Virus record (IMG/VR): IMGVR_UViG_3300024181_000003
Location: 1-64,000 of that record
Source of the DNA: a virus
Lineage: Duplodnaviria > Caudoviricetes
DNA length: 64,000 nucleotides
Direction: 5' to 3' (one strand)
A program made the position numbers and the translations under genes. How positions within the stretch are numbered: the stretch's first letter is position 1; every line of letters starts with the position of its first letter. Shown here in pieces: positions 3,980-49,123 of this stretch. The notes beneath the pieces were generated by a model. It had not been told where the DNA came from, searched no databases, and worked only from the letters and a program-made list of their open reading frames with translations.

Positions 3980-4098
3980 AAGTTTCTGTGGCTCAACCAC
4001 AGACAATGGTAATTCGCTAGCACGTTCAAAGCGTCTTCCCAAAAAGCATCCCGCAGGTGGCGAACCTATCGGCGGGGTGTACACATAAGGAAAACCAA

Positions 4099-4713
4099 AT
4101 GCAAGTAGTAGCAGATTTTCAAGTAAATGGTTTGTTCCCGGCTACCGTCGGTGGCACCGGAACGACCGTGAAGTACTTCCCTCGTAACGTAGCCAGCGCA
4201 GCTGGTGCGTCTTGGGTCGCAGCACCTGCAACCCCGTCCTCGACCTCACCGGTCGGCGCACTCTGGGTTCCGGGCGACAACAAGCTGAACGGCCAGCACT
4301 TCCGTGTCAACGTATCCGGCTCGGCAATCGCAGGCGCTTCGGCAGGTTCGGAAACAGTTACTTTCGGCTTGTACGCAGTTACCGGCTCGTTGGCATCTCC
4401 GACCTACACTCTGTTGAACTCGTCGGCGGTTCTGACCCCGGCGGTTGACGGCGTGCAGCACAACTTCTCGATCGTTGCTGACATGTTCGGCAACACGGAC
4501 AGCGGCATCGTCGGCGGTTCGCAGTACACCGTGATCGACAACACCGTAACGGCGACGGCAGCACTTGCCAGCTCGCTGACCGGCATCAACTTCGGTTCGG
4601 GCAACACGTCGCTGTATCAGGCGGCTCCGTTCGGACTCGTAGTCGGTGTGACCTTCTCTGTGTCGAACTCGGCCAACGCAGCCAAGCTGTACCAGTTCAA
4701 CATCGAAGCGTAA
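4099..4713 (+). CDS. beta-rich structural/decoration protein
   Basis: AAGGA RBS; Gly/Ser/Thr-rich; strong phage codon bias. Confidence 0.6.
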   Translation: MQVVADFQVNGLFPATVGGTGTTVKYFPRNVASAAGASWVAAPATPSSTSPVGALWVPGDNKLNGQHFRVNVSGSAIAGASAGSETVTFGLYAVTGSLASPTYTLLNSSAVLTPAVDGVQHNFSIVADMFGNTDSGIVGGSQYTVIDNTVTATAALASSLTGINFGSGNTSLYQAAPFGLVVGVTFSVSNSANAAKLYQFNIEA

Positions 4714-45594: not shown

Positions 45595-46493
45595 GCCGCC
45601 CCCAATCGAAAGCCGAGTCCGGCCTTCTTGGTGAAATCCTTGCGTGCTTCGACGTCTTCGCCGATTCGATCATACAAATCGGTGATCGACTTGTCGGCGT
45701 GCCCGGTCCAGAACTTCACTAGGCCCTCGGGCACACCGGTTTTACGGAGGCGGGTTACACGGAAACGACGCAGAGAGTGGAAGCCCGGCACGCCGACCTT
45801 GGCCAAGTGCTCGTAGGCTGTCATGCGGCGGTAGACGCCGCCGGTCTCGGACTGGAACAGGGGCTTCTGGGGCTCCGGCTGTCCAATCCATGTCTGCAGG
45901 TATTGGTTGAGTTCAGGCGACAGGTCAACGGTGCGCTTGCCAGCTGCCGTCTTGGTGCTGTTCTGTATCTCGCCCAAACTGACCGTCTTAGTGACAGAAA
46001 TTGTCATGTTTTGCTGGTCCCAGTCCTCGGACGTCAAAGCCAGCGCCTCGCCGATTCTAAGCCCGGTTCCGGCCAGCAGGGCAATCAGAGCCTTATCTTG
46101 GCCGATCGCCTCTCCTATGGCGGTCTGTATGCGATCAGGGCTAACCGTAGGGGCCTTCTGGTCCTGTATGACAGGCAAATCGATGAAGTCGTTGTTCCAC
46201 TTGCGGGGGAAGAGTTCGTTACCGTTGGCGTCCACAGCCGCTGAGACGACCGACTTGACTACAGCAACCACCCGGGAGATGGTGGCGGGTGCCAAACCCT
46301 TCCCTGCGAGTTTTGCGACGAAGGACTTGAGGACCCCGTTCTCAACCTTGGAGAGGTCGAGAGACCCGAGGTCCGGCAAAATGTGACAATCGAGAGCGTT
46401 CTGATAGGATGCAACGGTCGAGGGCTTGGCCGGGTTACGCTTGCGGCTGCCGATCTCGGCGATGAATTTCACAGACTGCTCTTGAAAGTTCAT
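45591..46493 (-). CDS. int: tyrosine recombinase/integrase
   Basis: SAM-like N-domain; R (GLRIGE), K, HSLRR, GHA, Y (DLYDR); alternative start 46508. Confidence 0.92.
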   Translation of the reverse strand: MNFQEQSVKFIAEIGSRKRNPAKPSTVASYQNALDCHILPDLGSLDLSKVENGVLKSFVAKLAGKGLAPATISRVVAVVKSVVSAAVDANGNELFPRKWNNDFIDLPVIQDQKAPTVSPDRIQTAIGEAIGQDKALIALLAGTGLRIGEALALTSEDWDQQNMTISVTKTVSLGEIQNSTKTAAGKRTVDLSPELNQYLQTWIGQPEPQKPLFQSETGGVYRRMTAYEHLAKVGVPGFHSLRRFRVTRLRKTGVPEGLVKFWTGHADKSITDLYDRIGEDVEARKDFTKKAGLGFRLGAA

Positions 46494-46514
46494 ATATGCT
46501 CCATTCATGAACCC

Positions 46515-46543
46515 ATTTTACTACGAGATCGGTTTTGTGTCAA
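46515..46543 (-). promoter_or_regulatory. integrase promoter (phage promoter family copy A)
   Basis: TTGACA-CAAAACCGATCTCGTAG-TAAAAT. Confidence 0.8.
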
Positions 46544-46651
46544 CAACTATTTCGTACCAGTACTCTCCTCGACTTCCTGTGTCCAAAAACGAACGTAGTC
46601 TGCGCCACCCCAATCGATTTCCGTTTGCGGGTAGCCGTCTCGCAACAGCGT

Positions 46652-46745
46652 GTGACGTACTCCGTCCCCTGAAAGGGACGGCTTCTCAACCCACGGCAGC
46701 ATTACTGCACCGCCGTTAACGGTTGAAGGCTCAGTCCGAGCCTGA
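46652..46745 (-). ncRNA. second, stand-alone TnpB omegaRNA scaffold (exact copy of IS right end)
   Basis: 46651-46747 identical to 46819-46915 (97 nt); three stems ending in TCAC; followed by a different guide. Confidence 0.8.
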
Positions 46746-46819
46746 GTCGTCCTGACAGAACCCTTGCCACGACGGCAGACGATTTTGCCGCCACGAAGCA
46801 AGAGCCGGGAGACGGTCTT

Positions 46820-46913
46820 GTGACGTACTCCGTCCCCTGAAAGGGACGGCTTCTCAACCCACGGCAGCATTACTGCACCGCCGTTAACGGTTGAAGGCTC
46901 AGTCCGAGCCTGA
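46820..46913 (-). ncRNA. TnpB omegaRNA (reRNA) scaffold overlapping the tnpB 3' end
   Basis: AGGCTC-GGACT-GAGCCT; TCAACC..GGTTGA; GAAG-CCGTCCC-TTTCAG-GGGACGG; ends GTCAC at the right end. Confidence 0.85.
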
Positions 46914-47970
46914 GTATTTCTAAACTGCTGGCGTGGTCTCTTGTTGTTCGCAACCCGCACGAACATTTGTGCAGCCTGTCCGAAAGTTTCTTCGGAGCCT
47001 TCTTGCCGCACTTAGGGCAACGCTGGCTGGTTCCTCGGGGGTCTACTCTCACCAGTTGGCGACCAGCGTATTCTGCTTTGTACGCCAACATGTTTAGGAA
47101 AGACGACCATCCGACATCAGCAACTGACTTCGCTAGCATTCCACTAGCAAGACCTTTGACGTTCAAATCTTCTACGGCGATGAAGCCGTTTGCGTCTACG
47201 ATTTCACGAGACAGTTTATGCTGAAAGTCTCGACGCTGGTTCACGATGTCTCGGTGAATGTTCTGTACGAACTGCACCGCTTTGCGCCAACGCTTTGAGT
47301 ACTTCTTGCGACGTGATACACGACGCTGGGCACGACGCAAACGCTTCTGTGCTGTTGCGAACCAACGGGGGTTATCTACGATTTCACCCGTTGACAACGT
47401 AGCGAATGATTCGAGTCCAACATCAATGCCGACTTGGTTCGTGTTCTCGGGCAACGGTTGTGCCGAGACTTCGCAACTGAAACATGCGTACCAGTGATTG
47501 CCCTCACGCTTGACCGAGACTGTTTTAATTTTGCCATCCACTGCACGGTGAAGTTTGATTTTGATTTCACCAACGCCTTGCACAAACAGATGCTTCTCTC
47601 GCAACTTGTTGCCGTCTCCGTGCGAGGGAAACGTGATGCTGTCATAGCGACGATGCGATTTGAACCTCGGGTAGCCAGCCTTGCCACCTTGTTTCACACG
47701 GCGAAAGAATGCCTTGAACGCTTTGTCTACACGCTTGAGCACGTCCTGCCCACAGTGACAGTTGGGCAGGTTGATGTCTCCCGCTGCTCGTACTTCCGAT
47801 AGTTGGCGGCATTGCTCGAACAGGTTGACCGACTTGCGGTGGCTACGATATGCGTCTCGACGTTCCTGCAACGCTGCGTTATACAGACGGCACGCTTCTG
47901 ACAACTGTCCACGCAGCAGTTCTTGTTGCACTGCCGTGGGGTACAGTCTGTATTTGAACGTCTTTCGCAT
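46870..47970 (-). CDS. tnpB: TnpB RNA-guided nuclease
   Basis: HTH KYRLYPT; RuvC D (GIDVG), E (AVEDL), D (TRDH); CPKC..CSC zinc finger. Confidence 0.95.
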   Translation of the reverse strand: MRKTFKYRLYPTAVQQELLRGQLSEACRLYNAALQERRDAYRSHRKSVNLFEQCRQLSEVRAAGDINLPNCHCGQDVLKRVDKAFKAFFRRVKQGGKAGYPRFKSHRRYDSITFPSHGDGNKLREKHLFVQGVGEIKIKLHRAVDGKIKTVSVKREGNHWYACFSCEVSAQPLPENTNQVGIDVGLESFATLSTGEIVDNPRWFATAQKRLRRAQRRVSRRKKYSKRWRKAVQFVQNIHRDIVNQRRDFQHKLSREIVDANGFIAVEDLNVKGLASGMLAKSVADVGWSSFLNMLAYKAEYAGRQLVRVDPRGTSQRCPKCGKKAPKKLSDRLHKCSCGLRTTRDHASSLEILRLGLSLQPLTAVQ

Positions 47971-48386
47971 TAGCGTCCTTTTTGGTTCTCAATATATTTC
48001 TTGACCGTTGCTTCTGAAACATGACCGACTGTGCCAGCGTAGTACGAACGACTCCACAAGGTTGGCATCCTCGACACCAAGTGCGGGAACTCCTGCCGAA
48101 GTATTCGGCTGCTGGCACCCTTGAGACGGTTGACGATTTCCGCTACACACCTTGTTGGGTCAGATGTGACAAACAGGTGTACGTGGTCCGGCATCACTTC
48201 CATAGTTTCGATGAGCACGCCGTACTGCTGTGCCGTGGCGTACAGGATGTGCTTGAGCCTTGTCTCCACATCACCAACGAGAACTCTGCGACGATACTTC
48301 GGGCAAAATACGATGTGATATGACAGATTGAAGACGGCTCCAGCGTTCTTGGTATAGCGACTGTCCTTCGGTTGCTGTATCTCCAT
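47970..48386 (-). CDS. tnpA: Y1 HUH transposase
   Basis: YHIVFCPKYRR, PDHVHLF, LWSRSYY; TAATG coupling to tnpB. Confidence 0.95.
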   Translation of the reverse strand: MEIQQPKDSRYTKNAGAVFNLSYHIVFCPKYRRRVLVGDVETRLKHILYATAQQYGVLIETMEVMPDHVHLFVTSDPTRCVAEIVNRLKGASSRILRQEFPHLVSRMPTLWSRSYYAGTVGHVSEATVKKYIENQKGR

Positions 48387-48562
48387 GTTAGAAGTCTGCC
48401 ATACTTCTATCCTGTTTGTCAAGTACTTTAACGCCCTCACCTGTCGCCTGAAGGCGACAGCCCGTCGGGCGATTTATTGTCGAGGTCTGTCAGATCGCAC
48501 TTGTCTGACAGCTTGCCGTAGCGCCATACAAAGCCCGGGGTTTTATCGCTCATGATCACTCC

Positions 48563-49123
48563 TTAGAACGGGATGTCGTCGAGGCCGATATCTTGGTGGC
48601 CTTGTTCGTCGATCGCCGAGTCAGGACGCTCAACTTCTTGATCTCGTCCAACCGTCCCAACCAGTACATCCTCGCCATCGGTGTAATGGCCGATTTCAGA
48701 TAGTACCGCAGACGACGCCTCCGATAACGCAGTAACGAGTTCATGATCTTCCTCTATTTCTCCCGGGCCCACAGCGTCACTTCCGGGTGCTCGTCCAGCA
48801 ATTCCTGAATCATCTTTTGAATCTCCCGGCGCATCAGGCCCAGACGGTGCTGCTCCTGTCCCAGTTGGTCCAGCCGGGTCAGTAGCCAGCTCATTTGTCT
48901 CTGCGCTTCGTGTTTGTTCATCGGATTCCTCCATCGCCTTGGCGATATCTGCTATCATTAGCGAACCCTTGTAGTGTTCGGTGACAGCGTCGATCGGCTC
49001 TTCCGGTTTCGGAATGATCGGCTGCGTCAACTCAACAAACTCGCCGTCGACAACGACTCGACGGTCCTGTCTCGGGCTACGTGCCCACTGTCTCAGCCAG
49101 CTTGGTACGTTTCGGTTTATCAT
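48563..49123 (-). CDS. hypothetical acidic protein ending DDIPF
   Basis: C-terminal LDDIPF resembles an SSB-type acidic tail. Confidence 0.55.
   Translation of the reverse strand: MINRNVPSWLRQWARSPRQDRRVVVDGEFVELTQPIIPKPEEPIDAVTEHYKGSLMIADIAKAMEESDEQTRSAETNELATDPAGPTGTGAAPSGPDAPGDSKDDSGIAGRAPGSDAVGPGEIEEDHELVTALSEASSAVLSEIGHYTDGEDVLVGTVGRDQEVERPDSAIDEQGHQDIGLDDIPF

Follow-up and report, generated by a model that had tools for sequence, protein, structure and literature searches.

The window, the whole 64,000-nt stretch of viral DNA that was analysed, carries an insertion sequence (IS) of the IS200/IS605 type that interrupts a soil-phage gene, and a second, gene-less copy of the element's right end (RE) lies 74 nt beyond it. 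The features of the locus, in the direction of transcription, are as follows.

48479–48553, minus strand: interrupted phage gene, 5′ part, 25 codons, ending CTCGAC; the CGAC at 48479–48482 is the left target/TAM
46820–48478, minus strand: complete IS200/IS605-type element, 1659 nt, with left end (LE), tnpA, tnpB and RE; limits from the IS-free allele L040
48441–48460, minus strand: left-end hairpin CTGTCGCC-TTCA-GGCGACAG, read from the sequence, 18 nt after the cleavage site
47970–48386, minus strand: tnpA, Y1 (HUH) transposase, 138 aa from the ATG (Pfam Y1_Tnp PF01797, E 2.8e-42)
46870–47970, minus strand: tnpB, RNA-guided nuclease, 366 aa (Pfam OrfB_IS605, Cas12f1-like TNB, HTH_OrfB)
46820–46913, minus strand: proximal RE, predicted ωRNA scaffold unit with three stems (the exact repeat spans 46819–46915)
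46800–46819, minus strand: guide 1, AAGACCGTCTCCCGGCTCTT, flank of the complete IS
46746–46819, minus strand: spacer, a 74-nt foreign patchwork whose last AC is common to the repeat
46652–46745, minus strand: distal solo RE, predicted scaffold unit, without LE, tnpA or tnpB of its own
46632–46651, minus strand: guide 2, ACGCTGTTGCGAGACGGCTA, flank of the distal unit
46547–46651, minus strand: interrupted phage gene, 3′ part, 34 codons and stop; its translation TLLRDGYPQTEIDWGG..STGTK matches the C-terminus of P0003
45591–46508, minus strand: tyrosine integrase, downstream context (Pfam Phage_integrase, E 5e-15)

A promoter-like site, TTGACA-17-TAAAAT, lies at 46515–46543, beside the integrase gene, and a protein-pattern scan with the integrase over viral contigs returned no relatives.

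The element fits the IS605 group of the IS200/IS605 family, and the features that place it there are also its points of likeness to IS608 and ISDra2: a Y1 TnpA, a TnpB with RuvC D/E/D residues and a zinc-finger/TNB domain, a subterminal hairpin at each end with cleavage sites at IS608-like distances, a target tetranucleotide, CGAC in this case, on whose 3′ side the element inserts, and a structured scaffold that overlaps the 3′ end of tnpB and takes the right flank as its guide. The 138-aa tnpA is called at the same length in sibling contigs and is intact. TnpB (PF01385, PF07282 and PF12323) matches the ISDra2 TnpB structures 8bf8/8exa/8h1j at E 5e-54; the alignment printed for 9yyg, a designed nuclease equal to these in length and in the range matched, places D/E/D at the three RuvC motifs along with the zinc-finger cysteines (GIDVG, AVEDL, TTRD, CPKC..CSC). 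TnpB is apparently intact, and the element, with TnpA and TnpB, is apparently active. The loop of the left-end hairpin reads TGAA, not TTCA, in L039, L045 and run X6, and 10 nt, the last four of them TCAC^ (^ marks a joint), come after the RE hairpin. In IS608, CL lies 19 nt 5′ of IPL (PMC3201880), a geometry that the left end here resembles. Unlike IS608 and ISDra2, this locus has a second, gene-less RE downstream, and with it two RE cleavage sites and two flanks.

The two right ends fall within a direct repeat of 97 nt (46651–46747 and 46819–46915) that is 100% identical and is found at these two places only in the 77.8-kb virus record. Read along the minus strand, the 3′ end of tnpB leads into the RE unit TCAGG..GTCAC (46913–46820), AAGACCGTCTCC.., GGACGAC, a second RE unit (46745–46652) and ACGCTGTTGCGAG... 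The repeated unit is the entire conserved three-stem right end of the element. TnpA, TnpB, LE hairpin and other left-end sequence are all absent beside copy 2, and the 74 nt upstream of it consist of foreign coding fragments. Covariation among 17 relatives backs the three stems, with 95.2% of cells paired as against 77.5% in shuffles and 31–45% in slid controls, and with double changes in 16 of the 26 stem pairs. Both units are complete by this covariation-defined module and fold alike; the right end is accordingly a predicted conserved, structured ωRNA scaffold. An Rfam scan of 46000–49000 at E ≤ 1 returned no family. We discounted a long-range pairing of GUGAU, in the tnpB coding region, with the terminal GUCAC, since the conserved RD codons lie within it and the window sequence disrupts it.

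The original prediction had described an exact 97-nt repeat whose second copy holds no transposase, nuclease or left end, and an intact-looking TnpB followed on one strand by what appear to be two identical, complete scaffolds with different 3′ flanks. The description holds. The record is a metagenome-assembled contig, and exact repeats near strain-variable sites are error-prone, which is what an assembly artefact, or a plain 168-nt slippage duplication, has in its favour. However, a contig from a separate metagenome record (L044) has the same two-copy arrangement, identical in sequence. In soil runs X1 and X2, Logan k=31 unitigs run across the two novel joints, and the unitig of the repeat is about twice as deep as the flanks; in run X2 the window form (depth 9.8) and a related form with 467 nt between the copies (depth 7) together account for the depth of 17 seen in the flanks. 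This related form (L045) is resolved by ENA contigs built with k=141, longer than the 97-nt repeat, and the layout is A-B-A with a foreign B, not the ABAB of slippage. We give artefact or slippage practically no credence; both are already refuted by L044 and the spanning unitigs, and there is no misassembly.

Sibling contigs resolve four alleles. The IS-bearing ones have identical left joints, and their IS is 100% identical (L037, L038 and L044).

Allele 1 (L040): IS-free, intact 122-aa gene
Allele 2 (L037, L038, L039, L046): IS with one RE, flank ACGCTG
Allele 3 (L045): IS, 467 nt of foreign DNA and a solo RE, in the order IS, 467 nt, RE94, ACGCTG
Allele 4 (the window; also L044): allele 3 minus 393 nt, the deletion extending from the RE tip to the target ATCGAC

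The translation of the 5′ part, MSDKTPGFVWRYGKLSDKCDLTDLD, corresponds to the N-terminus of the 122-aa product of the intact gene (P0003/P0009), and identity to the IS-free L040 ends directly after CTCGAC. The two sites in L040, CTCGAC^ and CCGAC^ACGCTG, show insertion 3′ of CGAC with no target duplication and a scarless empty site. CGAC precedes three independent joints: CTCGAC^LE, CCGAC^ACGCTG and, in L045, ATCGAC^AAGACC. The IS-free gene had been predicted to encode 83 aa; it encodes 122, with 189 nt between its two CGAC sites. No contig encoding the product of precise excision, a fusion of the N-terminal 25 aa to the C-terminal 34 aa, turned up.

At its right joint, GTCAC^ACGCTG, the distal unit agrees exactly with the one-copy alleles, and in IS-free siblings this place is the CGAC empty site. 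Finding IS-free relatives to read the empty site at this second junction, as had been suggested, proved feasible: L040 reads GGCCGAC^ACGCTGTTGCGAGACGG. The distal unit has the makeup of a solo IS right-end remnant, with a canonical right joint and a non-canonical left limit, which falls within tnpB coding sequence where 8 nt of microhomology lie. In L052 the foreign segment and RE94 are present, and the 1 kb upstream of them has no IS. L036 begins exactly at the RE^flank joint; we rejected it as an IS-less 'type 2' allele, the contig merely starting there. One-copy alleles (L037, L038, L039 and L046) are at least as common, and may either have preceded the two-copy alleles or derive from them by recombination between REs. 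The plain tandem duplication including flanking DNA, which the original prediction had set against itself, is matched in spirit by these siblings.

The spacer is composed of 17 nt of an antitoxin-like HTH gene (46803–46819), about 5 nt of filler (46798–46802) and about 50 nt of another genome's ORF (46746–46797). The antitoxin-like part was assigned by alignment to its native locus, L051, which holds a gene 3′ end, the HTH ORF and a PemK toxin; 394 of the 467 nt of the foreign segment align with L051, the match being 99.7% for L045 and 99.0% for L036. Because this match runs unbroken across ATCGAC(G/A)AGACC, the long, 467-nt form is ancestral and the window form is a deletion. It had been proposed that a net 96-nt insert leaves the reading frame of the host gene unchanged. 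The 71-nt spacer, however, does not come from the host gene, since the window form is the third allele minus 393 nt ending at ATCGAC. The spacer segment is also absent from the rest of the phage record.

For the last ~50 nt of the spacer, loose contig ends in runs X1 and X6, from other genomes, match only 46749–46795 and 46740–46797 and then diverge. In X6 the identity goes 8 nt into the repeat: the foreign ORF and the start of the IS unit have the 8 nt ACTCAGGC in common. The native source of this part is represented by a 30-nt loose-end consensus in Logan contigs only, and the searches yielded no full contig of it. A metagenome scan with 32 nt of the spacer matched L052 alone, the native ORF not being among the matches; a search for longer proteins with residues 50–92 of P0002 found no native source, and Pfam had no match to a 38-aa reconstruction of the ORF. 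The ORF may bear a likeness to the GKGxKxR region of tyrosine recombinases, and is distinct from the phage's own integrase.

These boundaries bear directly on how the second copy arose. The original prediction invoked either TnpA acting after CGAC or capture of a 94- or 96-nt scaffold. TnpA could in principle have pasted the 94-nt unit after CGAC, or a second IS at GGACGAC^ could have been partly excised, from the LE to ATAC^. The element's own target, CGAC, does stand immediately before the unit; the internal site ATAC^TCAGG has AC in common with both cleavage sites; and the unit retains the RE hairpin, the 5′ guide tetranucleotide and TCAC, in line with the rules for IS608 (PMC3201880). However, on its right the unit runs into the original phage-gene joint instead of the continuation of the foreign ORF beyond GGACGAC. 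The CGAC that had been read as an IS-type target belongs to that ORF, which natively reads GGACGACTCAGGC in run X6, so that CGAC and the first 6 nt of the 'insert' were already present, as expected for a microhomology joint. The unit also lacks a left-end hairpin, and in IS608 the choice of target depends on a left-end guide sequence (PMC3201880); scans of records other than near-identical ones found no other solo copy of the exact unit. We regard a TnpA-made copy as very improbable. With an original insertion joint on the right and a left joint within 8 nt of microhomology, scaffold capture fares no better, and the identity at ACTCAGGC points to illegitimate recombination, not TnpA insertion.

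We favour the explanation that the locus is a complete IS605-type element with a solo RE remnant 74 nt downstream, left at the original insertion joint, and is probably not the product of scaffold duplication. The IS would have inserted at the CGAC sites of the phage gene, with loss of the 189 nt between the two sites. Illegitimate recombination at the 8-nt microhomology between the start of the RE unit and the foreign ORF would then have replaced everything upstream, leaving a solo RE, and a full IS copy may have been regained upstream when the element re-inserted and IS copies then recombined. A local hop to ATCGAC and recombination between the resulting tandem copies would have removed 393 nt and supplied guide 1 as the new flank; a direct TnpA cut at the RE tip and a downstream CGAC would have the same outcome. 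Neither a second full IS nor two IS copies in tandem were found as an intermediate. Runs X2 and X6 hold right ends with other right flanks.

Right ends that are solo or truncated are frequent in this IS clade. Copies that lack TnpB but retain the whole module occur at L048/L049 and six times in one Acidobacteria MAG, and 5′-truncated right ends with other limits occur in L075 and L079. The remnant's left limit coincides with the beginning of the conserved three-stem module, which is also true of L048/L049, an independent TnpB-less copy. Selection for a unit that works, and not chance, could account for this. A dedicated mechanism, as this common limit might suggest, loses weight with L075 and L079, whose truncations lie at other points. 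Exact-pattern scans with the spacer and the RE 3′ 31-mer over viral and metagenome collections, near-identical records excluded, gave no match, which has no bearing on rarity.

Both guides had been predicted to match the IS-free allele of the phage gene. Guide 2 does so, following GGCCGAC in L040 with an exact match of at least 26 nt. Guide 1 has no target there; its 20 nt follow ATCGAC within the 467-nt foreign segment of L045. The window form and this 467-nt target allele coexist in one sample (run X2). The CGAC-preceded target strings are CGAC-AAGACCGTCTCCCGGC and CGAC-ACGCTGTTGCGAGACG. Read-through tnpB transcripts would bear two complete scaffolds, and each guide would also match a donor joint: guide 1 the one left by TnpA excision at the proximal RE, guide 2 the one left by excision at the distal RE.

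A further reading concerns function and is compatible with an origin by rearrangement: the locus would be a two-guide ωRNA mini-array under selection, in which TnpB processes a read-through transcript into two RNPs and drives against the IS-free allele through guide 2 and the 467-nt allele through guide 1, perhaps as an early step towards a type V-like array. The units are complete and fold alike, TnpB has its catalytic D/E/D, no terminator-like site was found between the scaffolds, each guide has an exact CGAC-preceded natural target in coexisting siblings, and the TnpB-less elements of the clade retain exactly this module. TnpB turns its own mRNA into ωRNA (PMC10278001), and standalone ωRNAs function in trans (PMC10691335). 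Against this, a search of runs recorded as RNA returned no rows holding the stretch, all copies are 100% identical, so that no signature of selection is possible yet, the spacer measures 74 nt in one allele and 467 nt in another, alleles with one copy are no less frequent, and a second downstream RE within 3 kb occurs in none of 29 TnpB relatives; that 94 nt suffice for this TnpB is a presumption. We consider a selected mini-array unlikely.

It is rather doubtful, too, that guide turnover by local re-insertion, with RE remnants kept, is a route to multi-guide arrays and that the two-scaffold allele acts as a double gene drive. If it did, guide 1 would cut the 467-nt allele and guide 2 the IS-free phages, and repair off the driver would spread the driver.

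Cas12 arrays have been hypothesized to arise from serial duplication of ωRNA segments, and irregular ωRNA-like arrays with repeats of >60 bp are known (PMC10691335); TranC transposon–CRISPR intermediates appear in citing papers and PDB names. Like the irregular arrays, this locus has long direct repeats, equal to the scaffold, behind a TnpB-type gene; scaffold and guide are sharply delimited, and the 3′ flanks differ. Where an ωRNA array or proto-CRISPR locus would have several repeats with regularly sized spacers, an origin of these repeats in duplication of a scaffold segment beside the effector, and an immobilised effector with neither transposase nor identical mobile copies, we find two units separated by a patchwork of 74 or 467 nt, the original joint on the right with foreign-DNA microhomology on the left, and a mobile IS with an intact tnpA and, in X2 and X6, REs with other flanks. 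The predicted proto-array spacing does not survive the sibling allele, in which 467 nt between copies is not array-like. The route also differs from the proposed origin of Cas12 arrays in proceeding by transposition and recombination, with the scaffold not split into tracr and crRNA. In being a complete scaffold without nuclease or transposase, the distal unit resembles standalone ωRNAs and PATE-like elements (Altae-Tran et al., per PMC10691335; Meers et al., bioRxiv 10.1101/2023.03.14.532601), with parallels within the clade in the TnpB-less copies (L048/L049 and the six in the Acidobacteria MAG) and the truncated ends (L075, L079). Unlike a PATE, in which LE and RE surround a gene-less core, it has no left end, and it follows its own full element directly, in the same orientation, instead of lying elsewhere in the genome. 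As a whole, the proto-array interpretation is partly supported.

The origin of Cas12 arrays by ωRNA duplication is a hypothesis for which natural intermediates are scarce, and this locus resembled one. Ordinary IS605 behaviour (insertion at CGAC, deletions that extend from the RE as far as the following CGAC, recombination of one copy with another, and an illegitimate joint) can place two complete scaffolds with different guides behind one apparently active TnpB, and tandem scaffolds are, as a caution, no evidence of an array-building mechanism. The IS is also seen carrying 467 nt of foreign DNA, part of a toxin–antitoxin locus, into a phage. Because the four alleles coexist in the same soils, the locus offers a natural test case with known targets, in which a leftover RE as the source of a second guide is directly testable.

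The locus is an IS605 element accompanied by a solo right-end remnant, a further case of an already known type. As originally noted, an exact repeat lies behind tnpB: a repeat search of the region returned a single family of two 97-nt copies (46651-46747 and 46819-46915) that are 100% identical, and the whole 77.8-kb virus record, whose first 64 kb are the window, contains no further copy. Encoded upstream of the two units are a Y1 TnpA and a 366-aa TnpB with OrfB_IS605, Cas12f1-like TNB and HTH domains. This TnpB aligns with structures of ISDra2 TnpB (E 5e-54), and the acidic residues of its three RuvC motifs and its zinc-finger cysteines are present in an alignment to 9yyg, a designed nuclease with the same length and matched range. 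Read from the sequence, with joints here and below marked by a spaced slash, the features are:

Minus strand, 3′ end of tnpB, ..AGAAATAC, preceding unit 1
46820-46913, minus strand, unit 1 (proximal right end), TCAGGCTC..GTACGTCAC
Minus strand, 74-nt spacer between unit 1 and unit 2, AAGACCGTCTCCCGGCTCTT..GGACGAC
46652-46745, minus strand, unit 2 (distal, solo right end), same sequence as unit 1, with 3′ flank ACGCTGTTGCGAGACGGCTA..

Misassembly of the two-copy layout was ruled out by an independent contig and by unitigs. P0005, a 107-aa ORF running through both units, is encoded too on metagenome contig L044 (Ga0247692_1001760), in which both copies and the spacer are identical to those of the window. 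Logan k=31 unitigs from four soil runs were compared with the region; in run X1, separate unitigs cross GGACGAC / TCAGG (46718-46782) and the spacer with RE / AAGACC (46754-46848). The repeat unitig has a depth of 23 in X1 (flanks 11-13) and 29-31 in run X2 (flanks 17).

The reading of the repeated unit as the whole three-stem scaffold stands as a comparative statement, because the right-end alignment gives three covarying stems that are conserved from the start of the repeat. This alignment comprised 17 right ends of the same IS clade: the window, three viral contigs and 13 loci of GTDB genomes (Acidobacteria, Acidoferrales, Chloroflexia, Verrucomicrobiia, Gemmataceae and Dehalococcoidia). 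RNAalifold yielded three stems, of which the second is split into two segments, with compensatory double changes in 16 of 26 pairs. Standard pairs made up 95.2%; shuffles gave 77.5%, with none of 500 reaching the observed value, and a slid-partner control gave 31-45%. The conserved region starts at stem 1, where the repeat of the window also starts, and columns further upstream are unconserved. The final stem (CCGTCCCT-TTCA-GGGGACGG) is similar to the left-end hairpin (CTGTCGCC-TTCA-GGCGACAG) and is followed by 10 nt ending TCAC, a right-end geometry of the IS608 type (PMC3201880).

Searching proteins with the ORF that follows the IS, and then looking up the contigs, recovered four forms of one phage locus, all with the same integrase downstream. 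The IS-free form (a), found in L040-L042, holds an intact 122-aa gene (P0003/P0009) and reads ..CTCGAC / CAATGG..189 nt..GGCCGAC / ACGCTGTTGCGAGACGG..; the empty site is GGCCGAC / ACGCTGTTGCGAGACGG, and the 83-aa empty-site ORF originally predicted is a chimera. Its 189 nt are absent from every IS-bearing allele (window 46547-48553). These alleles are the one-copy form (b), CTCGAC / IS / ACGCTG (L037, L038, L039, L046); the long form (c), CTCGAC / IS / 467 nt / RE unit / ACGCTG (L045 and L036, the latter contig beginning exactly at the RE / flank joint); and form (d), CTCGAC / IS / 74 nt / RE unit / ACGCTG (the window and L044). The last two forms occur together in X2, at depths of ~7 (long form) and ~9.8 (window form). 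The 1659-nt IS is 100% identical among the window, L037, L038 and L044; in L039 and L045 its sole difference is a flipped left-end hairpin loop, plus one more base in L039. This loop (window 48449-48452) reads TTCA in some alleles and the reverse complement, TGAA, in L039, L045 and run X6; with unchanged stems, the difference looks like a hairpin-loop flip. A promoter-like TTGACA-17-TAAAAT (11 of 12 matches; window 46515-46543, minus strand) falls within the final codons of the interrupted gene, immediately before the integrase start.

The spacer is of foreign origin. L051, a contig of a different genome, matches 394 nt of the 467-nt L045 segment at 99.7% identity. The match takes in the last part of a gene, a hairpin in the intergenic gap and codons 1-59 of P0010, an HTH-like ORF of 181 aa; nothing similar to the segment occurs elsewhere in the phage record. 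On L051 (409-1346), P0010, which has no Pfam hit, overlaps the next gene, encoding a PemK/MazF-type toxin, by 4 nt; the two are therefore likely a toxin-antitoxin pair in which P0010 is the antitoxin. Only the first 59 codons of P0010 are present in the phage alleles. Because the L045/L051 identity is unbroken across ..AAGATCGAC(G/A)AGACCGTCTCCCGGCT, the long form, judged from sequence, is the older arrangement and precedes the window form, which equals the long form minus 393 nt (L045 1906-2298), from the RE tip to just past ATCGAC.

The last ~50 nt of the spacer have a source other than L051. Contigs of yet another genome in X1 and X6 match only 46749-46795 and 46740-46797, respectively, with unrelated sequence for >150 nt either side. 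The X6 version, rebuilt from loose ends, reads ..GTCAGGACGACTCAGGC / GCTGCGAGC.. and already contains the CGAC that precedes unit 2 as well as this unit's first 6 nt; both are therefore native to the foreign ORF. The overlap of this ORF with the IS sequence (ATAC TCAGGC TCGG) is ACTCAGGC, 8 nt. We infer that the left joint of unit 2 is illegitimate and mediated by this microhomology. TnpA integration after CGAC, in which that tetramer would be an IS-type insertion target as originally suggested, is unlikely on the same two grounds, the native CGAC and the 8-nt overlap. L052 carries the same foreign segment and RE unit behind another gene (a CapR/DUF4379 zinc-finger protein) with no IS within 1 kb upstream; the solo unit therefore exists without an adjoining TnpB as well.

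Unit 2 meets its right flank at a CGAC empty site, through the canonical joint that the one-copy allele also shows. CGAC stands before three independent joints, and both deletions, of 189 nt and 393 nt, stretch between an IS end and a CGAC site. In the proposed history, the IS would first have inserted into the phage gene; illegitimate recombination at ACTCAGGC would then have exchanged all sequence upstream of the scaffold for foreign DNA, so that a solo right end remained. An entire IS would have been regained upstream by re-insertion, then recombination within the IS between co-infecting relatives. The window form may have arisen through a local hop to ATCGAC and recombination between the tandem copies or, alternatively, through TnpA cutting at the RE tip and the downstream CGAC. 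Either the one-copy or the two-copy forms may have come first; recombination between the two right ends would convert form (c) or (d) to (b).

The proto-array originally proposed, with two guides against the IS-free allele, stands in part: the exact copy is confirmed and guide 2 fits that allele (at least 26 nt adjoining CCGAC), but the spacer is foreign and guide 1 has no target there. The long form does contain an exact guide 1 target, preceded by ATCGAC, within its 467-nt segment. Because the minus strand has no terminator-like site between the units and both fold alike, a read-through tnpB transcript would carry both. TnpA excision with the proximal right end would leave the donor joint CTCGAC / AAGACC.., and with the distal one CTCGAC / ACGCTG..; each putative joint would be covered by one guide, a coherent scheme, inferred throughout. 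Of the sequencing runs that contain this stretch, zero are recorded as RNA.

In none of 29 TnpB relatives on viral contigs do the 3 kb downstream contain another right end. The module often occurs in gene-less copies in this IS clade. In the Acidobacteria MAG JABCZF01, at least six TnpB-less copies (L060, L065, L066, L067, L070, L078) have the same 30 nt before the module and six different flanks on its right, and are PATE-like; TnpB-linked copies occur there too (L058, L061, L062, L064). The clade thus seems to have a reservoir in Acidobacteriota, which perhaps also bears on the phage's host range. L048 and L049, large phage records of 140 kb and 99 kb, have on the minus strand (L048:7432-7700; L049:9414-9650) a copy, lacking TnpB, of the three-stem right-end module of a related IS, the one in L050. 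This copy is intergenic and is preceded by a TGnTATTAT-like -10 and perhaps by a left-end-like hairpin. In neither record does a TnpB match exceed the family's cut-off, and the copy may be a PATE or a gene for a standalone guide RNA. Remnants L075 and L079 are truncated at other points than unit 2. In L030, 71 nt just upstream of tnpB are 87% identical to the RE region (2923-2993 versus 4071-4141), which may reflect a solo right end upstream or LE/RE similarity. At window 46651-46652, X2 and X6 contain right ends of this clade with other flanks (for example GGCCTCGTAGTCGCCTTCGG in X2), so the element occupies further sites in the same soils.

According to published work, standalone omegaRNAs work in trans, irregular omegaRNA-like arrays whose repeats exceed 60 bp turn up occasionally, and Cas12 arrays are hypothesized to have arisen by duplication (PMC10691335); PATEs that encode omegaRNAs have been described as well (bioRxiv 10.1101/2023.03.14.532601). 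The interest of this locus lies in two points: its coexisting alleles record its origin, and both predicted guides have natural targets among the siblings. Were unit 2 shown to load TnpB, the locus would gain sharply in interest.
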